This document shows, one piece after another, positions 1 to 57,300 of a DNA stretch of 64,000 nucleotides. A model generated the notes under the pieces. It ran no database searches. It saw only the letters and a list, made by a program, of their open reading frames with translations, and was not told where the DNA came from. The position numbers were made by a program, and so were the translations under genes. Source of the DNA: Amphiscolops sp. MND2022 (lineage: Eukaryota); the NCBI GenBank assembly GCA_964187785.1, contig OZ076409.1, positions 24,554,001 through 24,618,000 of the forward strand, read 5' to 3'. Position 1 is the first letter of the stretch. Each line of letters starts with the position of its first letter.

Positions 1-194
1 ACATTGGGAAAAACAAGTGGGATAGATTTTATTCGAAACTTAACTGCCTTGACAGAACTGAACGCGGATAGCAGCATACTATATACTACTTCCTTTATTC
101 GAATGGAAAAGTTTTTTCCTTTATTCGAGTTTTCAAGGTTCACTGAGACTTTCTAGTTTTGTGCTTTTGTTGCAAGATTCAAAATACGAATGTG

Positions 195-1570
195 TTATGG
201 GAAAGTGCGGGTGCTTTTTTTCCGCGCGACAACTCTCGTTTCAGCCCGCAAGTCGCAAAATTCAGCCGTTCGTGGTCTAGTGATAAGATGCTTGCTTTTC
301 AACGCACATTGTTCGTGTTCGAAGCCGTGCGTATGCGCTAATTTTTTTACAACTGTTTCGAAGCAGAAGGTTTTCACTTTTTCGGAACTTGAGACCCTCC
401 CTTTCGGCTTTGAGAGACTTTTTCGATTTTTTAATGTCCCCAAAGGGTTCTCCCTTCAATTTTTTGATATTTTGCAACAGAACGAATATTAAAAAATCCC
501 AAAGGGCCCCTTCTTTCAGATTTTTCGCACTGTGAGACTGTTAGAAATTCTCATTTTTTCGAAAATTTTTCAAAGTCTTCAAAGGGTCCCCTTCAAAGTT
601 TTGCAAAAGAATGGATGTTAAAAAACTCAAAGAGCCCCCGTTATAGTTTTCGGCATTGTAAGATTTTCCAGAGTGAATAATTTTTGTCTTAAAATTAGGT
701 TTTCTCAGGCCCAGCACGCTATATCCGATTTTTGTTTGTTTTCAAAGACAGGCGTTTTTTTATGCGACTATTTTTCTAATTTGTTTCCATCGAACCCCCC
801 TGAATTTTTACTAGAAACGAAACGTTTTGCGAGCATGAAGGTTTTCGTGCACTTAGCGTCTTACCGGAGACCTTCTTCGAAAAATTTTGTCGAAAACTTC
901 GAAAACAATTTTCCTCAATTTTCTGTTTTTTAATGGATTTCGGTTGAGAAAGCTGGGTTTTTTACTGGTTCCAGTTAGAGAAGAATGGTTTTCGATTTTA
1001 CCCTTTGTTCTCCGTATGATATTGCTTATTTGGTTTTCTTCAAAAATTCGCAACTTTCTTCGCAAGTGTTTGCGAAGCACGGCTTCGCCTCTGTGTCAAA
1101 AAAATTTTGTCGAAAATTTTTGAATGTCTCCAAAGGACCCCCTTCGTTTTTTTGCAACCGGATTCCCAAAGGGTCCGCCCTTTTACAATTTTGAAAACTT
1201 TAACTTTCCGCTTTTTGAGCCTTGGATATAGTCCGATTTTAGATGTCTTATTTACAATAGCACGTGTGACGCTTGTCTCTGTAGGCCTCTACTGTGTGCG
1301 GATTAAATTCTGTGGGATTTTTTAAAAACCAGTTGAAGCGTTGACATTGTTTAATCAACTCCAAAGGGTCCCTCTCAAATTTTTTGATGGTTTGCAACAG
1401 AATGGATGTTAAAAAATCCGAAAGGGTCACCCATTTAGCGCGCCGATTCGGTCCAATTTTTTGGGGGGTTTTTCGGGTTCTGTAAAAGAAGACTTGACGC
1501 TATTTTTGAGCCTTAGATATGGCGCCGACTTATACCGACATACTTATATATGGCGCCGTTCCTTGTTTTC
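195..1570 (+). mobile_element. Two abutting truncated HINE copies (repeated at about 2256-3630)
   Basis: Core repeats and 3' ends TTTTGAGCCTTRGATAT at about 1213 and 1505. Confidence 0.7.
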
Positions 1571-3667
1571 TTGTTTTCTTGCGTAGTTGTGTAGTGGTAT
1601 TGCTATGATGAAAAAGCATTCAGTGGAGGACACAAGAAAAGAGCGACGGTGAGCAATCAGACATTTGTGACTTTGAGCAACTCACTTCGATATCACAGCT
1701 TCAAGCCGGCAATCGTTTTACTCTAGCTCATAAACAAGTTGTTTTTTCATAAACCAGTTGGTTTTCTTTGAAAAATTAGGTATAATTTGAACTAAAAGTT
1801 TCAAATTTCGGGCGACAAAGATCCTGCTCCTCAGCGGGTCTCTTGTGTAAAATCAAAATTGCCAGTTTTTTCTAAATAACCGTTTCGTGCTTCTTTGGTA
1901 GAAATATTGATTGTTTTCGTAGATCGACAGAATTAAACGACAAAGCAATCATATACTTAGGAGACTTGTTTAATAGAGGAAGTTTTGCAGTATATCACCC
2001 ACGCTCAAGTCCTAAACTGTCGGTAAAATAAATCAGGGCGGACAAAATTCCGGTGCTTCTAACATTGGGAAAAACAAGTGGGATAGATTTTATTCGAAAC
2101 TCAACTGCCTTGACAGAACTGAACGCGGATAGCAGCACACTATATACTACTTCCTTTATTCGAATGGAAAAGTTTTTTCATTTATTCGAGTTTTCAAGGT
2201 TCACTGAAATTTTCTAGTTTTGTGCTTTTGTTGCAAGATTCAAAATACGAATGTGTTATGGGAAAGTGCGGGTGCTTTTTTTCCGCGCGACAACTCTCGT
2301 TTCAGCCCGCAAGTCGCAAAATTCAGTCGTTCGTGGTCTAGTGATAAGATGCTTGCTTTTCAACGCACACTGTTCGTGTTCGGAGCCGTGCGTATGCGCT
2401 AATTTTTTTTACAACTGTTTCGAAGCAGAAGGTTTTCACTTTTTCGGAACTTGAGACCCCTCCTTTCGGCTTTGAGAGACTTTTTTCGATTTTTTAATGT
2501 CCCCAAAGGGTTCTCCCTTCAATTTTTTGATATTTTGCTACAGAACGAATATTAAAAAATCCCAAAGGGTCCCTTTCAGATTTTTCGCACTGTGAGACTG
2601 TTAGAAATTCTCATTTTTTCGAAAATTTTTCAAAGTCTTCAAAGGGTCCCCTTCAAAGTTTTGCAAAAGAATGGATGTTAAAAAACTCAAAGAGCCCCCG
2701 TTATAGTTTTCGGCACTGTAAGATTTTCCGAAGTGAATAATTTTTGTCTTAAAATTAGGTTTTCTCAGGCCCAGCACGCTATATCCGATTTTTGTTTGTT
2801 TTCAAAGACCGGCGTTTTTTTATGCGACTATTTTTCTAATTTGTTTTCATCGAACCCCCCTCAATTTTTACTAGAAACGAAACGTTTTGCGAGCATGAAG
2901 GTTTTCGTGCACTTAGCGACTTACCGGAGACCTTCTTCGAAAAATTTTGTCGAAAAACTTCGAAAACAATTTTCCTCAATTTTCTGTTTTTTAATGGATT
3001 TCGGTTGAGAAAGCTGGGTTTTTTACTGGTTCCAGTTGGAGAAGAATGGTTTTCGATTTTACCCTTTGTTCTCCGTATGATATTGCTTATTTGGCTTTCT
3101 TCAAAAGTTTGCAAATTTCTTCGCAAGTGTTTGCGAAGCACGGCTTCGCCTCTGTCAAAAAAATTTTGTCGAAAATTTTTAAATGTCTCCAAAGGGCCCC
3201 CTTCGTTTTTTTGCAACCGGATTTCCAAAGGGTCCGCCCTTTTTACAATTTTGAAAACTTTAACTTTGCGCTTTTTGAGCCTTAGATATAGTCCGATTTT
3301 AGATGTCCTATTTACAATAGCACGTGTGACGCTTGTCTCAGTAGGCCTCTACTGTGTGCGGATTAAATTCTGTGGGATTTTTTAAAAACCAGTTGAAGCG
3401 TTGACATTGTTTAATCAACTCCAAAGGGTCCCTCTCAAATTTTTTGAAGGTTTGCAACAGAATGGATGTTAAAAAATCCGAAAGGGTCACCCATTTAGTG
3501 CGCCGATTCGGTCCATTTTTTTGGGTTTTTCGGGTTCTGTAAAAGAAGACTTGACGCTATTTTTGAGCCTTAGATATGGCGCCGACTTATACCGACATAC
3601 TTATATATGGCGCCGTTCCTTGTTTTCATGTTTTCTTGCGTAGTTGTGTAGTGGTATTGCTATGATG

Positions 3668-4330
3668 AACAAGCCGGGACCGGCCCAAGTCGGCGCCATA
3701 TCCAAGGCTCAAAAATAGCAAAAAGACTTCCAAGTGTCAAGTATTCGTTTACAGTAGTCGAAACTCGAAAATTTTTCGAAAATTTTTTTTTTTGAAAAAA
3801 TTACATACTAAAAAAATGGACCGAGTGGCGCGCTAACGTCTCACAATGCCGAAAAACTGAAAAGGGGGACCCTTTGAGGTTTTTCAACATCCATTCTGTC
3901 GCAAAACATGAAAAAATTGAAGAAAAAAATTTTTTTATTTTCGGGAGAAAATCTCACAATGCCGAAAAAAACTGAAAGGAGGAACCCTTTGGGATTTTCC
4001 AACATCCATTCTGTCGCAAAACATCAAAAAAAATGCAGGGGGGACCCTTTGCGGAAAAAAAATTTTGAAAAAAAATCCGAAAAAAATGTCTCGCAGTGCC
4101 GAAAAAAAATGAAAGGGGGGACTCTTTGGTCTCGCCCGGTATGATATGTTACGCGGAAAAACAGGTAAATTCATTTTGGTCCAGTTCGCTAGGCCAAATG
4201 GTGCTATTTGACACCATAATATTTTGTAGAACTTTTAAGAACTATTTTGGTCAGTTCGTGTGGATTGAAAAAAAAAAAAGAAAAGTCACTATAATAGTCG
4301 CGTTTCACTTCATGAAGCGCCGACTAAAAA
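3668..4330 (-). mobile_element. Non-autonomous Helentron/DINE-1-like element (HINE), complete copy
   Basis: subTIR AGTCGGCGC/GCGCCGACT, 3' hairpin GCCGG-TC-CCGGC, T-run ends, internal AAAGGGTCCCC tandem units; empty site at 1611-1615. Confidence 0.85.
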
Positions 4331-5199
4331 GCATTCAGTGGAGGACACAGGAAAAGAGCGACGGTGAGCAATCAGACATTTGTGACTCTGAGCAACTCAC
4401 TTCGATATCACAGCTTCAAGCCGGCAATCGTTTTACTCTAGCTCATAAACAAGTTGTTTTTTTCTTTTTAAAAAAATAGGTATAAATTGAACTAAAAGTT
4501 TCAAGTTTCGGGCGACAAAGATCCTGCTCCTCAGCGGGTCTCTTGTGTAAAATCAAAATTGCCAGTTTTTTCTAAATAACCGTTTCGTGCTTCTTTGGTA
4601 GAAATATTGATTGTTTTCGTAGATCGACAGAATTAAACGACAAAACAATCATATACTTAGGAGACTTGTTTATTAGAGGAAGTTTCGCAGTATATCACCC
4701 ACGCTCAAGTCCTAAACTGTCGGTAAAATAAATCAGGGCGGACAATATTCCGGTGCTTCTAACATTGGGAAAAACAAGTGGGATAGATTTTATTCGAAAC
4801 TTAACTGCCTTGACAGAACTGAACGCGGATAGCAGCATACTATATACTACTTCCTTTATTCGAATGGAAAAGTTTTTTCCTTTATTCGAGTTTTCAAGGT
4901 TCACTGAAACTTTCTAGTTTTGTGCTTTTGTTGCAAGATTCAAAATACGAATGTTTTGAATTGAAAGTTGCCTCTGGAGGTTTTTAAAATGAGTTATTTT
5001 CTGGAAATAAAAGATATACTTTTTGGGATTCATTTCAATTTACTTGCTGTTGCAGAAAAATCACAGACTTGATTTTTAGAGTTCGTTACAAATTTCGAAA
5101 ATGTAGAAGGTCTTAGTTGCGATTTTTTTCCGAATATTCGTTAGCTTGATGTTTAGCAACCTTTTGGTTCGTGCCTAATCGATCAATAGTTTGTTTCAG

Positions 5200-35350: not shown

Positions 35351-35750
35351 GGCTTTTTTCTGTTTTTCCCCCCACCATCAAAAGTTTTTGGGCGAAATTT
35401 ACGAAAATTTTCAAAATGGCCCAATTAAAAATGAAATATTTTTCCATAACAAAGTACACTTCTATTATAAGAGTTTTTTGTTTGAACAAAACATTTCTCA
35501 CACGTTCTGACTGTGATTACCTTCGAATTGATTTTTTTGTGAGTCACAAAACTGGAAGTTGTTGAGCTTTTAATGGAGAATGCGCGACTTCATAGGGAGA
35601 AAAGTGTGAACAAAGTCTATATCCCAAACTGTCAATCTGGAAGTACATTTAACTTTGAAGATTTTCGGTTTCAGTTTCAAGGCTATTCATGATAATATTT
35701 GCACTATTTTTTCAAAAAAAATGGCGGTGGGGGGGAAACAGAAAAGAATC
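35351..35750. mobile_element. Second copy of the GG-terminal MITE; Gypsy inserted at its last 4 bp
   Basis: Same TIRs and interior as 34031-34433; TSD CTTTTCTA (35343-35350) / CTTTTCTT (40808-40815). Confidence 0.78.
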
Positions 35751-37248
35751 TGTGGGGTCGAATAACAAAAAGACAACTGATTCGAATGAAGGTTAAATTA
35801 ATAATGAATAGATGATAAGAAATCAGCTCTATTTATACCAAATCATTGTCCCAAAGGGCAGGATTACATTCTAAACGGTACTATTGAACCTTTCCTTTGG
35901 GACGGTGACCGTTCTTTTTGGCCGTTCCTTTTGGACGGTACCTTTCCTTTTGGCTGTTCCTTTTAGACGGTACCTTTCCTTTTGGCCGGTTCCTTTTGGA
36001 CCATTCCACTGCTTATGGGGAAGCATTTTCCGATATCAGTGAAGCTAAGTAATCGGTGTCGGTTACAGTTAGTCGCAACCGAAGCATCAAATTAGCAAGT
36101 GTTGTCTGCTTGGCCAGGTCCATCACCTTTTTCGCAAAAACCTTACTCTTTTCCGCAATGTTGACCTCGGGATGTCCATTATTTGCGCCACTAACCACGG
36201 ACAGTGAACCAACACTGCAGCATAAGTAGCTCGGGTTATGTAATTTGGCTTGTCGTTTGCTTCAATCTGATCGTACTTCAAACCAGCGAAACGTCCCATG
36301 GCTCGGCACATATTGTTGATCTCAAAACCTGTCATGCCACTCCTTCGTGAAATAACCCAATTACCAAATTTGGCTCCTGGAGGCACTTTTTTGGCTAAAC
36401 CTTCACCTTGAAAGGGAAGGTTGATGTCATCAATCTCCGGCGTAATGTCACGGATTTGATCGTCGACCTCGTTGACATCGTCTAATTTGCTTATCTGCGA
36501 TGTGGACAGGCTGGCCAGCTTATTCAGCGGTACCAGGTTGTTGTGCCACTCGTTAGCTGGGGGTCGTGCCAATTCTTTGGCTGCCGAGGACCGTTCTTGC
36601 CATCCCTTTTCTTCTGCGGCCTTTTGGGTGGTGGTTCTTCATCGGTCTCGGACGAACTGCTGCTCGAATCTGAAGAGCTGGATAAGTGGTGTTCACGCTG
36701 TTTCTGTGGTGTTGGATTGCGGGGAAGTGTTCTAGGTGCAGGATTGCTAACAATTTGCTCGTTGTCCACTGACACTTGAGCGAACAACTCAATTGACTGT
36801 GTAATAGCAACCATTCCATTCTGCGGCGTAATAGACATCAATGTCAAATTGGCGTGGTTTGGTAACATCCCTCCGAGCTGCATTTTGATGGTTTGTAGAG
36901 TTGCAGAAGGGACATTTCGTCTGAGCTGATTTCCATTTCTGCCGACCGTTTGGTGCTGTTTTTTGAAGAGAAGTGATTCTAAGGGTTGAAAACGATCCTT
37001 TGTGTCGTTTGAAGTGTGGTCACGTTTCTGACTTCTGGTGACTTCTGAAATGACTCATATGAGTCATCATACTACTACGTCATTACGTAATCATGATAAG
37101 TCGCCTCAACGCATTGTTGCCCATCAATCTAACGGCTTGAAATATACGTTTAATATAATGTTTCATTCAGAAAAAAGTAATAAAGCATAGGTGACTAAAA
37201 TTGGAATCGAAATATTTTTTTTCCGATATCCAGTGTGGATAGGTTACA
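35751..37248 (-). repeat. 3' LTR, split by an insertion (LTR parts 35751-36037 and 37219-37248)
   Basis: Matches the 5' LTR up to TTTTCCGATATC and resumes at 37231 with CAGTGTGGATAGGTTACA. Confidence 0.9.
36038..37218 (-). other. 1.18-kb foreign insertion in the 3' LTR with overlapping orphan ORFs (36524-36883, 36123-36572, 36013-36198)
   Basis: Absent from the 5' LTR; flanked by duplicated TTTTCCGATATC (36026-36037, 37219-37230); coding-like composition. Confidence 0.85.
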
Positions 37249-37260
37249 GAGGTCCCCCAT
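37249..37260 (-). promoter_or_regulatory. Polypurine tract region
   Basis: ATGGGGGACCTC immediately before TGTAAC of the 3' LTR. Confidence 0.7.
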
Positions 37261-37284: not shown

Positions 37285-40200
37285 TCATGCGAATGAAACG
37301 GTTTTATGAACTCGTTGTTCCCTGCAGGTAGGACTAAACCTCTTGCCTTGAGGAGGTTTGTCAACTCCTACACACGGAAAATGAAACCATTGTATGACAC
37401 AAATAGGACCGTCGCAGCCGATCATATCGGTGTTAAAAGGTTCCCCACAAGTACAAAAGGACCCATTGTCCTCTGACAATTTTGGCACAGTTGGTTTGAT
37501 ATGTGGCTCTGATGGAAAGTAGCAAGGTTTAACTCTGGTTAAACTCACTCGGGTAGGGCCGTTCGTGCATTGTATCAACATTGTTTTATCATTGCGTTCC
37601 AGAACAGGAAAAGTACCACTATAGGGTGCCTCCAAGGGACGCCTGGTACGATCAACTCGTAGCCAAACATGACTACACTCCTGAAGGTCCCGAGGAACAT
37701 ATTGCTTGAAACCGGAATGAGGAGTCAATGAAGGTGTTGTAAATTGTAATAACTGCAAATGCGTGGCCAGTTTAGAGACGTAATCACGAGTGAATGTTTG
37801 TCGTTGTTTTTCTTTAAAAATAGTGGGAACAAAAGCATCAGATCCGGTTACCAGTTGAAAAGGGGATAGTCCCATGGCATTGGGCAGAATTTTATGACTG
37901 ATTAAAACGACCGGTAAAGCTTGAGTCCAGCGATGTGAACAATGTCGTCAATAATTTCCGACAAGAACGAAAACTGCCGGGATTGTCGAGGGGAGTGGTC
38001 GGTTGTTTTTCGGAAGGACGCAACAATGGGTTTGTGGTCGGTAAAAACGACACAGTAACGACCTTCAATAAACCGTCAAAATTTCTGTGTTGCGGCAAAA
38101 TTGCTAAAAGTTCTTTATCAAATACAGAATAATTGCGTTCTGCGACAGATAATTTTCGTGAAAATAAAGCTAGAGGTACGTTTGTCCCGTCCGTTCTGTT
38201 GTCGTGTAAAACTCCGCCAATTGCTTTGTCGGTAGCATCAGTGGTGAGAGTGAGAGTACCATCTGGAGACAAATAGTGTAACATGGTACGTTGAGAAAGT
38301 TTGTTCTTCATTAATGTCAAAGCGTCATCGTGGAAGGATTCCCAACGCAGTGGTGTGTCGATAGTCAAATTTGAAGTACGGGATGGCCGACTATCATTGA
38401 GTAACGTTTGGAGAGGTTCGACTATTTCTGCATAATGGGGAACATGTTGTCGATAAAAAGAACATTCCCATCATACTTCGCAAACTTTTGTAACTTGTGG
38501 GACGTGGCCATCGTTGAATAGCTTCGACTTTGTCCGCTTTGGGTTGTAAACCTTCAGCAGTGATCAAAAATCCGAGGAATTCGATCTCATTTTTCATCCA
38601 TTCGCATTTCTTTATAGAGCAGTGCAGTCCGTATTGCTTCAGGCGTTCCAATACCGCTTCGATGTCTTTCAAGTGAGTCGTTATATCGTCTGATGCAATT
38701 AGGACGTCGTCCACGAAGGTGAAAACCATATCTAATCCTTGGAAAACTGTATTCATAAAGCGTTAGAATGTTTGTCCTGCATTTCGAAGACCAAATGGCA
38801 TTCGTAGAAATTCAAAAAGACCAAACGGTGTTGTCAAAGCAGTTTTCTCTGTCATCGGGATGTACTGGTATCTGATGGTATGCTTTTACTGTGTCCAACT
38901 TACTAAAAACGTTTTCGCCATAAAGATTGAAATCCAATAGCTGTGGAAGGGGGTAGCAATCCCTTTTAGTGACCGAATTTATTCGTCGATAATCTCCACA
39001 AGGCCTCCAATCGTTAGGTCCTTTTTAGGTACCATATGCAATGGGGAGGCGTATTCGCTGCATGATGGACGACATATCCCTGTTGCTATCATGGAATCGA
39101 AACACTGCTTGGCGATCCTGTATTTCTCAGGGCACAAACGCCTCCGGTTGCCATACGGGCCTTTACCCGTCAGTTCAATACGATGTAGCGTTTGGTGTTG
39201 AGCTGTGCTGTTGAAATCAACATCACCGAAAACTTCGGCATTTTTGATCATTATTGATTTCAGCTCGTCGTTTCCGATATCAGGTATCACTGTCTCAACT
39301 TTGTTCACAGAGACGTGGTTGCACTTTTTAAATTGAATTGCAGTAGACAACAATGTTGTTATCCTTGAGGCGGCCATTTTTTCAATCATTTGAGAAATCG
39401 TTCGTTGACAAGAAATTAATACGAAGAATATTACACGACACGTCAGCGACGAAAAAGGTATGGCTGATGCACCGTCGTAAGGAAGGTATTTCAATTGGTA
39501 TAGTAACTTTTCCGTAAACGTTCAACGCGTCACTTTAATGGTGGATAGAACTGCGTTGGAAGGCAGAATAGTAACTGGATGGATTAAATTGGGCTTAACA
39601 ATGGACACCATTGATCCTGTTTCTATAAGGAACTTTTGCTGGCTAGAATTGATAGAGGCAGCGATCTTAATGAATAAATCACCGCCAGTGCAAGCTGCCA
39701 CTACGCTAGGGGTTCCTAGTTTGACGCTGGGTTGTTTGAGGTTGCTGGTCGTGATGAAGCATCAATCAACTGTGGTTTCTGACCCGGCCACTTACACCAG
39801 GGTTTACACCGCTTGGCATTATTTGCATAGAAGACGTGAAATCGGCAAATTTTTGGTTTTGCCCCGCGGTGAAGGGAAACATCCCTCCTTTTTGCTGTCT
39901 AGAATTGCGTTGAAAGTTTCTGTTCGGGGAGACAGAATCATATTCGGGCTTAGGATCGGGTCTTACTGCTGCTACGTGGTAATCGAACGTTGAATACTGG
40001 TATGTCGTATCCGCAAGTTTAGCGAAATCGTCCAAGGCCAAATCTTGATGTGCGGACAGGGTAACACGTGTCGTTGGAGGTAACGCTTGGAGGAATTGTG
40101 GCGTAAAAATTGGTCATCGATGGTTAAATGGCAATCTTCTAATTTGCGCTTTATGCGTAGGAAACAGACTGACGGTTTTTGGCCGTCAAGGGAAATTGAA

Positions 40201-40544
40201 CCTAAGGCCTCCTCCAATAACTCCTTTCGACTTTTTTGGTAGATTCCAATTATCTGCTCCTTTAGAGATTCGTAAGAAGTAACGTCCAGTGGGAGGTTGA
40301 TTGCGACGTCCTCCGGTAATGCGCCCATGACGTGGTGAAACTTTGGTTGGGAACTGGTGATATTTGCTAGTGCAAATTGGGGCTCGAGTTGTCTGAACCA
40401 GACTTGCGGGTTGCTTCTATAGAAAGTTGGAGGTTTGATTGTTATTCTCCCCACTTGAGCATTGTTTGTGCTATCACCGCTACCTTCGTTAGATATGTGA
40501 TTATAAGCAGTGGTAGAGTCTTCCAATTGTGTTGGATCATCCAT
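37285..40544 (-). pseudogene. Frameshifted gag-pol; integrase core deleted; C-terminal PHD finger
   Basis: Gag IKPPTFYRSNPQVWFRQLE; CRFHVFYANNAKRCKPWC (39794-39847); protease FLIETGS (D replaced by E); RT ASPLHMVPKK and FVDDVLI; RNase H TTDA, FSRKL, DKELLAI; IN tail LEAPYSGTF; several frameshifts and a stop. Confidence 0.92.
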
Positions 40545-40560
40545 CACGTCGGGGTCACCA
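40543..40560 (-). promoter_or_regulatory. Primer-binding site complementary to tRNA-Trp
   Basis: TGGTGACCCCGACGTGAT, 3 nt inside the 5' LTR; complement of the eukaryotic tRNA-Trp 3' end ATCACGTCGGGGTCACCA. Confidence 0.9.
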
Positions 40561-40563
40561 ATT

Positions 40564-40803
40564 TGTGGGCTCGAATAACAAAAAGACAACTGATTCGAAT
40601 GAAGGTTAAATTAATAATGAATAAATGATAAGAAATCAACTCTATTTATACCAAGTCCTTGTCCCAAAGGGCAGGATTACATTCTAAACGGTACTATTAA
40701 ACCTTCCCTTTTGGACGGTGACCGTTCCTTTTGGCCGTTCCTTTTGGACCGTTCCACTGCTTATGGGGAAGCATTTTTCGATATCCAGTGTGGGTAGGTT
40801 ACA
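40564..40803 (-). repeat. 5' LTR (240 bp)
   Basis: Minus strand TGTAAC...CCCACA; direct repeat of 35751-36037 plus 37231-37248. Confidence 0.93.
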
Positions 40804-42979
40804 AATCCTTTTCTTTTTTAAGGATAACGAAGTTAGATTTTATAAGCTGGCTTCCACTAACTGCCACACTAATGTAACTTCTACAGCTTCTGATTTTTTG
40901 AGAGGATTTTTGAGGTCTGACAAGCAGAAGGAGGTGGGTTCGAGTCTCGCCCTTGACCAAAAACTTTTTGTGCATGTTATTTTGGCTTTGAGATTTTTTT
41001 TCGCAAATTTTTTTAATGATCCCAAAGGGTCCCCCTTCAATTTTTTTCTATTTTCCAAAAGAATGGATGTTCAAAAAATCGTAAAGGCCCCCCTTTTCAC
41101 ATTTTTTGGCACTATGCGACTTACCGGAGACTTCAAAAAAGTTTCGGAAACTTTTTTCCTCATTCGGGTACTGTAGAAGAGAATACTTGATACTTTGAAG
41201 TCCTTTTGCTATTCTGAGCCTTAGATATGGCGCCGACGTGGGGCATTTGATATGGCGCCGTTCCCGGCTTATTTGTTTCGCCGGGTTGGTTGATTATAAT
41301 CATTGATTGTAATCTTACTATAATCAACTCTATTAAATTATTTCAATCATTATTGATTGAAATCAGCCAAAATAGGCCAGACATGGATGAGATCTTTGAT
41401 CTACGAATCCGCATTAACAGGCTTATTTGTCTTTCGTTCCGAGCACTTTTCAATCGGAATGCATTCTTATCTTTTTAGACTTTGTTCATTCTAAGACTAG
41501 AATCAATTTGATCAAAACGCAAAAATTTTTCTGCCCAAATATTTATTTCTGACCGAATTTTTTTCAAACAAGACATGTTTGGCCTAAATCGGCGCCCTGC
41601 TAAGTGTTCAGAAAGAGCAAAGTGTTTTGAATATGCCAAGGACATTAGTTTGAGAAATTTTATCCAGATCTTGTTTGCTGATGCAAATGTTTTTGAGGCT
41701 CAGGTTGTTCATGTAGCGTGATTGCCAACGTCAATTTCGAATCAATGATCTTTTTGGCTTGTTCACACAAGCGTGAAACGAAGCTGACCACATGCTTACT
41801 GACATGACTATTTTCTGTTCACAACATCGTGCAAACATGCGAGCACTCCATTTCGACAGGGGAAAAAATTTTGGTGTGCGTAAATTTTGGGGGATAGATA
41901 AATTTTCTGGCAGTAGGCCGGGGGGCATTAGCAAAGAAGATCCTTTTATCCAATCTATAGAATACCTGAAAGGATTAAGACCCCCCTCATAAGACTGGAA
42001 AAACCGCTTTTGCCCTTAGTCGTCATATCAAAAAAACCCAAATTTTGGGTAAAAAGTTCGGCAAAAATGTTTCTTAGTGCCAAAAAATCGCAAGAAGACC
42101 CTTTAAGGGTTCTTCAATATCCTTCCCCCGGCAAAGCTTTTCTTTCGAAAAATGAATGAAATATTAGAAAAATGATTTACTGGTTTGAAGCTAAACCAAA
42201 AACCTTCAATTTTAATTTTTTACCCAGGTAACAGTGTAGGATCCAGATACAATGTTAACACTATTTTTCCATGTGAAGTCACACCTTCGTGATTAGGAAA
42301 AACTCCCTGTTAGGGAAGAAATTCACTTTTAATTAGGTCACTTCCAATTTATCTGTAAATTTCATTCAAGTAAGTATTTAAACAAACGGCCCTTCAAAAT
42401 TTGCGAAACGTTTTCCGAGCCGAAAACATCTTGAAAAGTGTGGGGGTACCCTTTGGCCGAAAAGCACAATTCGAAAACAGAAAACACAATAGATCTTTCC
42501 ACAAGTACTAAGAAAATTCTGATCAGTCCCACAGGACGTAATGAAGATGCCACCCTCGAGACTCGTAAAACAGCTTTCCTTAACAGAAAACCCTGAAAAA
42601 TCGTGAGAAAAATTCGATGGTCGCATAGTGCCGAAAAACGCTAAGGAGGCTCTCTTTGCTGGCCAAACGCGTTGTTTCTCCTGAAAATTGAAAAGGGGTT
42701 TTGGTGAAAAAATGCAGAAAAGTTGTTTGTTACGGCAAAAAACAAAGGAGCACCATTTGGTCTTTGCTTCACCTTTGTTTGTATGCATTAAAAAGTTGCG
42801 TAGTGCCGAAAAACCCGAAAGAAGATTTTACGCTCGCGAAATGTTTTTTTTCAACTAAAAATTTAAACTTGGAGTCAATTTTTTAAATTTTTTTGCATCA
42901 GCTGGAATAGTTTTTAATTATTAAATTGGTTCTTTTTCCGGATAAAATAATCTTTGTTCAGGATTTTTCAAATTATCCT

Positions 42980-51735: not shown

Positions 51736-53186
51736 CTGGACAAGCAGCGTTTCACTTATCGTCATGATGGACTTCACAAAATTCAATTTTAGTCGGCGCT
51801 TTATGAAGTGAAACGCGACTATACTAGTGGCTTTTTTTTCAATCCACACAAACTGACCAAAATAGTTCTTAAAAGTTCTACGAAATTTTATGGCGTCAAA
51901 TTGAACCATTTTTCCTTTTTTTTCCATTTTTCCATACAATACTGGGCGAGACTAAAGGGCCCCCTTCCAGTTTTTTTCGGCATTGTGGGACTTTTTTTGG
52001 AAAATGTTTTTTCACCAAAGGGTCCCCCTTCAATTTTCTTGATGTTTTGCGACGGAAATTTTGAAAAATCTCAAAAATCTTCCCTTTCAGTTTTTTCGGC
52101 ATTGAGACTTTTTTCGAAAATATTTTAATGACTTCAAAGGGTTCCCCTTCAATTTTGCTGATGTTTTGCGACAGAAATGTTCCAAATGAAAAATCCCAAA
52201 GGGTCCCCCCTTTTAGCGCGCCAATTCGGTCCAACTTTTTGGTTTTTTTCGGGTACTGTAAAAGAATATTTGACACTTTGAAGTCCTTTTGCTATTTTTG
52301 AGCCTTAAATATGGCGCCAACTCATGCCATTCCCGGCTTGCTCAATTATTGTAAGGTAGTGCTATACAAATGGTGCCATTCACGAGTGTGTTATCCACAA
52401 GTGGAACCCTCTTCTCAAGTTTGCTCACGACTATGGAAGCAACCAAAGACTTGAGGGTCCTGGACAAGCAGCGTTTCACTTATCGTCATGATGGACTTCA
52501 CAAAATTCATTTTTAGTCGGCGCTTTATGAAGTGAAACGCGACTGTACTAGTGGCTTTTTTTTCAATCCACACAAACTGACCAAAATAGTTCTTAAAAGT
52601 TCTACGAAATTTTATGGCGTCAAATTGAACCATTTTTCCTTTTTTTTCCATTTTTCCATACAATACTGGGCGAGACTAAAGGGCCCCCTTCCAGTTTTTT
52701 TCGGCATTGTGGGACTTTTTTTGGAAAATGTTTTTTCAACCAAAGGGTCCCCCTTCAATTTTCTTGATGTTTTGCGACGGAAATTTTGAAAAATCTCAAA
52801 AATCTTCCCTTTCAGTTTTTTCGGCATTGAGACTTTTTTCGAAAATATTTTAATGACTTCAAAGGGTTCCCCTTCAATTTTGCTGATGTTTTGCGACAGA
52901 AATGTTCCAAATGAAAAATCCCAAAGGGTCCCCCTTTTAGCGCGCCAATTCGGTCCAACTTTTTGGTTTTTTTCGGGTACTGTAAAAGAATATTTGACAC
53001 TTTGAAGTCCTTTTGCTATTTTTGAGCCTTAAATATGGCGCCAACTCATGCCATTCCCGGCTTGCTCAAACTATTGTAAGGTAGTGCTATACAAATGGTG
53101 CCATTCACGAGTGTGTTATCCACAAGTGGAACCCTCTTCTCAAGTTTGCTCACGACTATGGAAGCAACCAAAGACTTGAGGGTCCT
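51736..53186. repeat. 724-bp tandem duplication, each unit holding a complete HINE (51787-52340, 52511-53064)
   Basis: CTGGACAAGCAGCG at 51736 and 52460; near-identical units; CT microhomology at the junction. Confidence 0.93.
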
Positions 53187-54352: not shown

Positions 54353-57300
54353 GCAAGTTATTGATTTCAATTTTTCCATGACAAGTAATTTTGATGAAAA
54401 CATGCTGGATTTTGTAACAGAAAGAGCCACCAAGTAGTATCTACAAGCCGAATGAGAAGTATACCATGTTTCCTGTCAAAACAGCCCAAGAAGTGCTCCA
54501 GGAACAAGAGATGCCAGTAGTCTCTTATGCCGATCCAAAGCCTTCTCACAAACGACGAAAGAAGCCTCAGACATTTTTTGGCTGTGGAAATCTGCATACA
54601 GGTGCTTTGGGACTGGTCAAACACGATGGCTCTGCGTTGAATCAAAGACAGATCGCCAATCCTAGAAAACTGCATTTCGATAAAACTATACGGTAGTGTA
54701 TGTAATTTCTTCTATTGCATGCCACGATATTTTCTCATTTTCGCAGGGATTTTTATTTCGGTATTTTTTACACTCCTTTCTGTCCGTCGTAACTTCTCGT
54801 GCTATTTTTCAGTCGGCGCTTTTCGTAGAAAAACGCAGACTACAGTAGTGACTTTTCTTTTTTTTTCTTTTTCAAGACCAACGAAGTGACAGATTTTAAA
54901 AGCTGGCTTCCACTAACTGCATAGAGACTACTGGCACTTGGTATAGAGTTTAATTAGGCTTTTTTGAGGTCTACCAAGCAGAAGGACGTGGGTTCGAGTC
55001 CCGCCCTTGACCAAAATTTTTTTTGAAGGTTATTTCGGCTTTGTGAGACTTTTTTTCGCAAATTTTTTGTGTGTCTCCAAAGGGTCCCCCTTCAATTTTT
55101 TTCTATTTTGCAAAAGAATGGATGTTCAAAAACTCCCAAAGGCCCCTTTTTACATTTTTCGGCACTATGCGACTTACCGGAGACCAAAAAATATTCAAAA
55201 AAGTTCGGAATTTTTCAGTTTTTTCCTCACGCGGGTGTAGAAGAGAATACTTGACACTTTGAAGTCGTTTTGCTATTTTTGAGCCTTAGATATGGCGCCG
55301 ACTTGAGCCGTTCCCGGCTTGTTAATATATCTATCGAAAAAAATTTCCAAAACATTCGAAAAAAGAATCCAGAATTCAAAAACGCTAAAAACCAACAATG
55401 GGTCTCGCTGTGATATTTTGACACTGAGCATTGCACTTTTTTCATTTATGGCGTTGATTCTCGGGGAGCGAAAGGTTTTGGTTTTGTGGTTTTGTTTTAG
55501 TGAGCCGGTTTTCTGCTAAAATGTATTTTGAAAACGGAAAACAATCACAGTGTCAAAATATCACAGTGTCAAGATATGAAGAATTTTGAACGTCAAGGTT
55601 CTTGAACTATCTTCGATACTAATCTTTTTCGATTGTCATACGTTATCTAAAGTTACCATGTGGGCTCGCGAAATATTTTACTTCAAGGGAACGTAAAGTG
55701 TTGCAGTGCGCCTGAGCTTTCTACCCCTATTAAGAAACCCGTGCATTTCGTGTTTACCACCTTAAGTTGCAGTCAGCTAATTCGTGGCAAGATTTCATCA
55801 AAGTCTTCAGCAGTTTATGAAAACAATTTTTTTCAGAATTTCAAGCATTAAAGTAAAATCTTTGATGTGCCAATTGCAAAGAGTGATTTTCCGGGAGACT
55901 ATTTCTGATGTGATTACAGGACTGTGGGTTGTGGTTACGGCTTCACAATTTTTGTGCCATCCTCTCTGACTGGCGCTGGTCTTTTCGGCTGTGGATTGAA
56001 CGGAGAGGGTCAGTTAGGCCAACATTTCGCTAACGAAGATGACCCACAAAGTATCTTCGAACTTCTCCTGACTTTGCAACCAATTGAGTTAAGCTCGCCT
56101 GAAGTGACTCCTTCTGCGCGCTTCACGAGAGTCGACTGTGGTCGATCTCATGTTGTGGTGGTCAGTGAAAAACACGAGGTCTTTTGTTTTGGGTCAAACT
56201 CTAATGGCCAATGTGGGTATCCGGTCAAAGAAGGCACCGATTATTTGGTCGATGCAAAAGTTCATCTTGTGAAGGAACTGCTTGACTTCAGGATCAAGAA
56301 AGTTGTTTGTGGATATGATCATAGTCTATGTTTGACTGAGTGTGGAAAAGTGTTTTCGTGGGGGTGGAATGCGGACGGTCAGTTGGGAATTGGTCATACA
56401 AACTCAACCCATACACCATCATTAGTCAAAGGGGACATGACCGATGAGAAAATAGTTGACATCAGTTGTTTTGCGGATACATGTTTAGCCGTCAACGAAA
56501 AAGGTTCCCCAAACCTTAGGCTTCGTGAATTATCAATTATAGTCTAATAGCTTTTTCGATAAGATTGTTCATGAATAATGAACATATAAATTGTGTTTGG
56601 TATGTTTAAAAAAGTCATTTAATTCCATCATCATCATTCGATTGAACGAAATGAATGGTATTAGGTTTGGTATAAAGTTCAATCGTAATTGTAGCCACGC
56701 TGTTCCTAGAGAATCCAATAAAGTGAAAGAAAGGAGAGCTGTTTTTGTGAGAATAATGTATTGTTGGGCGAAAACGGTTCAATTAACAAAGAATGTAAAG
56801 TTTATTTCTATAATTGGGAGCTTTTCGCAGCTTTTGTCGATAATTGACTCAGAAATTTCCCCATAGCTCACTACCTAAATGATCATTTAAGTATTGTTGC
56901 AGGTGACATATTCGGATGGGGAAACTCTGAATACAGCCAATTCAGTGTGTCCACAGATGATATCCAACTGACTATACCCCGCAAATTGGATTTCAAAAAT
57001 TTACAATCTAAACCGACATCAGTGGTCGCTGCAGGCAGCATGTGTGGCCTTCTTACTCAACAGGGAGAAGTGTATACATTTGGCTACGGACAGCTGGGAC
57101 ACGGTCCAAACGTCTCCCGATCTGCCGAGCCACAACTAGTGCACCCTAGATTGTTTGGTACGCTTCAGAAACCTGTTAGAGTTGAAACACAGAGTAAAAC
57201 TTGGACCAGTCAATCGATTAAGAATCAAATTCACCGGTTAATCGATTAACTGATCCAGATTCTATAACTGAGTGAAAGGGTATGAAGGGTACAAGTTTTC

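Follow-up and report, generated by a model that had tools for sequence, protein, structure and literature searches.

It is customary to regard retrotransposon LTRs as non-coding, an assumption built into annotation tools. Among the accessory genes of LTR-bearing elements, MMTV sag gives a protein which is made from spliced RNAs and presented at the cell surface, foamy virus Tas is a transactivator of an internal promoter, HIV nef overlaps U3, and the bdelloid ORF3s are located between pol and the 3' LTR. The MMTV LTR reaches about 1.3 kb owing to its Sag coding, according to the available part of PMC3026287. The 3'ORF of the snakehead retrovirus, proposed as a transactivator on the strength of acidic and basic tracts, proved not to be a major one, as stated in the accessible text of PMC12193657. 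Closer to the element considered here, the LTRs of the CsRn1 clade are described as 330-381 bp long with no gene inside in those sections of PMC2582038 and PMC3601003 which are accessible. The literature searched, largely open-access papers in their main text, contained no report of a gene inside a CsRn1-like LTR.

The locus described here lies in a 64-kb window, by which the whole stretch of DNA analysed is meant, and consists of a minus-strand Ty3/gypsy element whose 3' LTR holds a 1181-bp cassette. This cassette is probably a resident U3 accessory gene of a CsRn1-like family with a normal LTR of about 1.5 kb, which the 5' LTR of this copy has lost. As in MMTV, an accessory ORF lengthens the LTR (about 1.3 kb in MMTV, 1.5 kb here) and factor-binding sites are found within it; unlike MMTV, the element is a Ty3/gypsy without env, and Pfam and BFVD gave no match to Sag by sequence or fold. 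The predicted U3 protein further differs from Sag in that it looks nuclear from its modelled features and may have a promoter of its own within U3. Foamy virus Tas, the snakehead 3'ORF and HIV nef resemble the present gene in their position at the 3' end and in acidic and basic tracts suggestive of a transactivator, but the ORF in the window is placed entirely inside U3 and no homology with them was found; moreover, the outcome for the snakehead 3'ORF calls for caution in reading the U3 protein as a regulator. Family-level extra genes of unclear function are also described for bdelloid elements (ORF3 types, env-like or enzymatic) and for Retrosat2 (ORF0, upstream of gag-pol), with no placement inside an LTR in the parts of these accounts that are available (PMC5408684; PMC3485330). 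With CsRn1, PwRn1 and AgCR, the element shares the CX2HX9CX3C Gag, a 4-bp TSD, a PBS starting with TGG and a similar size of the short LTR, whereas the U3 gene, an ING-type PHD finger on the integrase and the 5' terminus TGTAACC set it apart from CsRn1 elements.

If U3 encodes a conserved, unclassified nuclear protein, retrotransposons would have their own equivalent of MMTV sag. Solo LTRs would become possible sources of a trans-acting regulator, and the U3 gene would give a testable route for the acquisition of accessory genes by LTR elements. The locus also carries a warning, in that what looks like an "insertion with TSD" in one LTR may instead reflect a deletion in its partner.

The host element and its unequal LTRs

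The element carrying the cassette is a decayed, minus-strand CsRn1-like Ty3/gypsy LTR retrotransposon, in which TG...CA LTRs, TSD, PBS and PPT are all present. Its 3' LTR (35751-37248, minus strand), the start of which was set by the PPT and by identity to the start of the 5' LTR, is a long form of 1498 bp bounded by TG...CA, with the cassette in U3. The 5' LTR (40564-40803, minus) is a short form of 240 bp without the cassette. The two copies of the TSD AATC lie at 35747-35750 on the left and 40804-40807 on the right (plus strand). A polypurine-tract-like site (37249-37260, minus) is immediately 5' of the 3' LTR, and a matching context was read in P0027, one of the related predicted proteins considered below. 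The primer-binding site (40543-40560, minus) begins with TGG and is presumably that of tRNA-Trp, while a TATA box, TATAAAT (35831-35837, minus), marks the putative LTR promoter.

The coding remnants follow the order gag-PR-RT-RH-INT. A frameshifted gag (39716-40540, minus) was recognised by Pfam DUF7041 and by the CX2HX9CX3C motif (about 39794-39847), frameshifted remnants of protease, RT and RNase H (37895-39761, minus) by Pfam RVT_1, RT_RNaseH_2 and a weak gag-asp_proteas match (E 0.1), and the C-terminal part of the integrase (37285-37947, minus) by its translation, with no Pfam rve match. From the translations and the lack of an rve match, the integrase core appears to be mostly missing in this copy; the end of RNase H is joined straight to the integrase C-terminal part (about 37890-37950), apparently through a deletion that took away the zinc finger and the greater part of the catalytic core. 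The integrase ends in an ING-type PHD finger (about 37306-37467), for which the ING4 PHD was the best of 29 PDB matches (E 1.2e-14). This finger is a possible H3K4me3 reader and could steer integration as the chromodomains of chromoviruses do. When the integrase-PHD frame was compared with viral contigs, pattern matches were obtained and none was confirmed by tblastn. In the available portions of the respective articles, PHD fingers are called widespread in retrotransposons (PMC6673714) and are recorded on Ginger1 transposases (PMC2836005).

The CsRn1 signature consists of the Gag CX2HX9CX3C motif and a tRNA-Trp PBS, with a 4-bp TSD in PwRn1 (PMC2582038, accessible part), and the typical LTR termini, modelled on 13 LTRs, are TGTGGYG ... 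MSYYAMA (PMC3601003, accessible part). The 3' motif fits the LTR of the window, whereas the 5' motif, TGTAACC, does not match TGTGGYG; given this terminus, and with an affinity drawn from motifs, the element is filed as "CsRn1-like" only. Its host is a eukaryote, as the RCC1-repeat exons elsewhere in the window show, and, judging by the clade of the element, probably an animal. Besides the cassette and a 65-bp tandem-repeat block, the two LTRs differ at 12 of 240 aligned sites (5%). The block belongs to a series of U3 tandem repeats in units of 32-33 bp (35875-36005, minus), which is 65 bp longer than its counterpart in the 5' LTR (40690-40755); the number of these repeats varies between the two LTRs and the locus of P0010, another of the related proteins.

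A single frameshifted gene within U3

A preceding reading, made from the sequence alone, had described the cassette as an orphan insertion carrying overlapping ORFs of 119 and 149 aa and a third frame running open into the LTR. These ORFs were found as described: between stops they are 176 and 171 aa long, or 119 and 149 aa when counted from the earliest start that is plausible, and the third open frame, of 82 aa, ends within the LTR. Their coding nature was borne out, but tblastn of four relatives (P0004, P0007, P0011 and P0012) maps the overlapping frames onto one predicted gene of about 307 codons, broken by three frameshifts. The gene (36013-36936, minus) reads from an ATG at 36936 to a stop at 36013-36015, and the frameshifts, located by mapping the relatives back, fall near 36900-36870, 36615-36600 and 36160-36126. 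It is placed downstream of the LTR start, as set by the PPT, and upstream of the TATA box, that is, in the position of an LTR-encoded gene, with its last codons and stop in the segment common to the short LTR. The cassette itself (36038-37218, minus) comprises about 280 bp of upstream non-coding DNA and most of the U3 gene. Two other readings of its frames were rejected: a zinc knuckle in the CPFC frame (36792-37019), where intact relatives use another frame, and truly overlapping ORFs of the densovirus kind, which the relatives join into one.

The relatives were retrieved with a single window frame, X standing at the stops, which was searched against 1.84 billion protein representatives at E<=0.001. 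There were 18 matches, 17 of them relatives, so that the label "orphan" had to be given up; the other, P0019 (a 2126-aa LRR protein, E 7e-4), was set aside as fortuitous. A close family is present on about 11 other contigs and a second subfamily, with some 40-53% identity to it, on 4, counts in which some contigs may be one locus in several assemblies (P0024 on 4 contigs, P0006 on 2). Intact distant relatives are P0012, of 297 aa, and P0022, of 301 aa, the latter differing little from P0018; they show 28-34% identity to the window frame and 33% to one another. P0017 aligns over about 40 residues only. P0012 and P0022 come from short metagenome contigs of 3270 and 5379 bp, respectively. No intact member of the close family was among the matches of the protein searches; a word-index search for relatives of the window ORF of 301-2000 aa returned none among 754 candidates, and another from P0012 recovered P0012 itself and nothing else (1 of 1353 candidates).

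Copies taken as sharing a contig, judged by equal size, are 96%, 93% and 99% identical, with a third copy on the first of those contigs at 91-92%. Between contigs, identity is 71-89% over 15 in-frame pairs among six proteins, a range from which the pairs of P0016 were excluded; P0016, P0025, P0013 and P0024 are translated out of frame, either in part or throughout. The near-identical copies would fit paired LTRs, and tandem duplication would fit as well.

Searches for relatives in viral contigs, metagenome contigs and prokaryote genomes gave only pattern matches, none confirmed by tblastn. The cassette had no match among phage records and only sub-threshold ones in Pfam, PHROGs, PDB sequences and Rfam; it matched no known TE family, a possibility which the earlier reading had raised against itself. 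In the ESM Atlas, the window ORF had no usable match and the best score of P0012 was 0.89, with low recognition. DIRS Gag/LAP2alpha (PF11560) was considered and rejected, there being no Pfam match and nothing beyond one weak Atlas row (rank 23, score 0.83, the family on 22% of members, low recognition).

Predicted protein and upstream sites

A Ser/acidic tract with the basic, NLS-like stretch PPPKRPQKKR is found at approximately 36596-36700 (minus), and a Ser tract and basic residues are also present in P0012 and P0022. In the model of P0012, the Ser-rich middle is predicted to be disordered (pLDDT <50, residues 45-125) and the C-terminal domain is confident, with block means of 83-95 over most of residues 151-290; the model of P0018 has the same helix pattern (mean pLDDT 85.3; C-terminal domain 79-92, residues 11-139). 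In both models the helices have pLDDT values near 90. These models and weak fold matches point to a conserved folded C-terminal domain with an HTH-like unit at 36016-36420 (minus). The earlier impression of a nuclear, HTH-like product agrees with the NLS-like tract and the helical models. Foldseek, which had been recommended along with tblastn, gave no match at E<=0.001 against PDB and BFVD, a result which does not in itself make the fold new. The best VIA-align scores were Z 5.8 (rmsd 3.8, 82 aligned) and Z 5.5 (rmsd 3.2, 52 aligned), and values of Z <=5.8 are within the range which VIA-align gives for common arrangements. Six of the ten best domain rows belong to DNA-binding proteins of the HTH type, among them Fis, DnaA domain IV, KorB and CT009; the Pfam HTH_psq match to the cassette had E 0.14. 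The HTH-type fold matches of the modelled C-terminal domain are thus suggestive only.

Upstream of the ATG, a cluster of bZIP-type sites (TTACGTAA, TGACG and two TGA[CG]TCA) and a GATA site forms a candidate enhancer/promoter at 37051-37099 (minus). Four bZIP-type sites within 60 nt were obtained in 1 of 1000 shuffles, for motifs picked after inspection. It is proposed tentatively, with doubt slightly outweighing confidence, that U3 holds an internal promoter and encodes a nuclear DNA-binding regulator acting on the element's own LTR. The protein, made from its own bZIP-site promoter in U3, would bind the LTR and either increase transcription or counter silencing. Possible, yet more doubtful, is the wider notion of an old lineage of animal Ty3/gypsy elements carrying a U3-internal expression unit, composed of a bZIP promoter and a new HTH-like family of transactivators or anti-silencing proteins. 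If this were true, any LTR, even a solo one, could be a source of the regulator in trans, exact loss between the 12-bp repeats would give LTRs without the gene, and, together with the PHD finger of the integrase, a retrotransposon regulated like a complex retrovirus would be at hand.

Cassette junctions and the direction of change

The cassette sits between two copies of TTTTCCGATATC and has no counterpart in the 5' LTR (40564-40803). The upstream copy (37219-37230, minus) corresponds to LTR nt 19-30 and was also read in P0027; the downstream copy (36026-36037, minus) is within the last codons of the gene and was read in P0010 and P0011 too. The plus strand of the 64-kb window has exactly two copies of TTTTCCGATATC and the minus strand none, and the single copy of the 5' LTR has one mismatch. 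Coordinates and 12-mer copies thus confirm the earlier observation that the 3' LTR is interrupted 30 bp from its start by 1181 bp which the 5' LTR lacks. Of 1000 composition shuffles of the long LTR, 80 had a 12-mer repeat at any position and 4 had one with a copy among the first 100 nt, so that the repeat alone is no proof of a target-site duplication.

The borders bear no mark of a familiar mobile element. As previously noted, the cassette has neither the TIRs of a DNA transposon or MITE (the search listed 18 inverted pairs, none of which joins the cassette ends) nor poly(A) at its coding 3' end. The signs of a retroposon or processed pseudogene were likewise not found, since neither a poly(A) or repeat tail nor a 3' UTR precedes the repeat, and the ORF crosses the downstream repeat. 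A second copy was not found within the 64-kb window. A short inverted repeat, formed by the 12-mer and the cassette start, spans the upstream junction (37206-37228, minus), and the translation of P0027 suggests a more perfect one at that locus. At the other end, the final 30 nt of the cassette resemble LTR nt 1-18 beyond the 12-mer, with TGTAACC at 36061-36067, ahead of the downstream copy, as a looser likeness. This resemblance was noticed post hoc, and control windows scored as high in 8 of 3000 cases for the head of the 5' LTR and in 22 of 3000 for that of the 3' LTR; it could have guided an ancient template-switch capture or a later deletion.

Both junctions recur elsewhere, as read from three predicted proteins only (P0010, P0011 and P0027). 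On a 51,983-bp contig, P0027 reads through the 3' UTR, the PPT, the LTR start, the 12-mer and the 5' region of the cassette, with 20 of 23 residues identical in its first block; it was the one match among 32 candidates in a search for the upstream junction, which was aimed at the long form. P0011 crosses the downstream 12-mer to the same stop, with identity at 36 of 43 residues of the last frame, and P0010 extends from the cassette via U3 to the TATA region, where the repeat length differs (E 1e-9 for the LTR part alone). As these loci are diverged, the recurrence argues that the long LTR was propagated as a unit, in place of the one-off insertion into the 3' LTR which the sequence-only reading had envisaged. 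The conserved protein of about 300 aa, its many diverged copies and the recurring junctions together show a family-level LTR gene.

The polarity of the change is probably the reverse of that first assumed. Amino-acid distances of 10-29% between copies correspond to some 5-13% at the DNA level under neutral decay, by our own rough estimate, and with a difference of 5% between the LTRs of the window, the short LTR is no further from its partner than the closest long copies are. Six substitution sites can be read in the translations of relatives; these side with the 5' LTR at three of them and with the 3' LTR at the other three. Small divergence and balanced private changes make the short LTR look derived from within the long family. 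Most likely, then, the cassette was removed from the 5' LTR by a deletion from one 12-bp repeat to the other, a route that is described for short direct repeats (PMC3648361, in its available part).

Reverse transcription yields two LTRs which are identical at first (PMC5668417, available part), and the earlier statement that a U3 gene would be copied to both of them holds good. On the favoured reading, namely that of a resident gene lost from one LTR, both LTRs of the window copy would have been long at integration. The cassette would have dropped out of the 5' LTR when the 12-bp repeats slipped or recombined, whether in the course of reverse transcription or once the element had integrated, so that one 12-mer was left, and the U3 gene would then have decayed along with the rest of the element. 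Its first entry into U3 may date from long ago, by template switching at a sequence resembling the LTR start. Of the origins first proposed, an old capture of this kind by an ancestral member of the family is still a fair one; searches of PHROGs, BFVD, viral contigs and phage records turned up no donor, either viral or host. Two observations sit less well with the loss of a resident gene: the 12-bp repeat with its near-start position (4 of 1000 shuffles) looks like insertion into a short LTR, and the 240 bp of the short LTR are near the published CsRn1-type lengths, 330 and 381 bp in the accessible text of their sources.

The best surviving alternative, though an unlikely one, keeps the gene as a U3 resident of a long subfamily and adds a coexisting short-LTR subfamily. 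A short partner would have contributed the 5' LTR and a long one the 3' LTR, either while the element transposed, through strand transfer or recombination, or afterwards, through gene conversion. This alternative would account for a 5' LTR lacking both the cassette and the 65-bp repeat, and in Onsen, LTRs recombined between members of the family have been documented (PMC5668417, in the part available); the 95% identity of the two window LTRs and their balanced private changes speak against it, as does the long form of the single upstream-junction match, in a search directed at that form. Rather less probable is a separate, target-specific mobile element inserting repeatedly at LTR nt 30 with a 12-bp duplication, for which the 5' LTR would be the empty site. 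The exact flanking repeat, the identical junctions at several loci and the many copies are what such an element would leave, but the cassette lacks TIRs, poly(A) and any transposase, recombinase or RT match, and its gene has no 3' UTR of its own, taking the stop codon from the LTR both in the window and in P0011.

It is more improbable still that the asymmetry is regular. Elements of the family would then usually integrate with a long 3' but a short 5' LTR, the completion of the 5' LTR passing over the cassette from one 12-bp repeat to the other, and the gene would be inherited solely via the 3' LTR. The window copy is so built with its TSD intact, and the sole upstream junction read elsewhere, that of P0027, also belongs to a 3' LTR; the near-identical same-contig pairs, however, suggest two long LTRs per element, and no precedent was met in the literature searched. 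A one-off capture of viral, host or mobile DNA into the 3' LTR after integration is very improbable. The missing cassette in the 5' LTR, the 12-bp duplication and the GC content of the cassette (45%, compared with about 37% in the flanks) were in its favour, but the internal region of the element is also GC-richer than the flanks (41-44%), no donor was found in the collections named above, and the recurrence of both junctions at diverged loci largely refutes it, barring P0010, P0011 and P0027 being alleles or later duplications of the window locus. An assembly chimera or collapse, to which the many frameshifts might point, is hardly credible given matching TSDs at both ends and both junctions on independent contigs.

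Over most of the window (400-63500), there is a very abundant family of dispersed repeats with AAAGGGTCCCCC and GAGCCTTAGATATGGCGCCGAC cores, with 18-25 copies per motif family in both orientations, and recent tandem duplications, 92-98% identical, occupy 1-5100 (period about 2060 bp) and 51736-53070 (724 bp). Exons of a host gene with RCC1 repeats are located at 55909-57249 on the plus strand.
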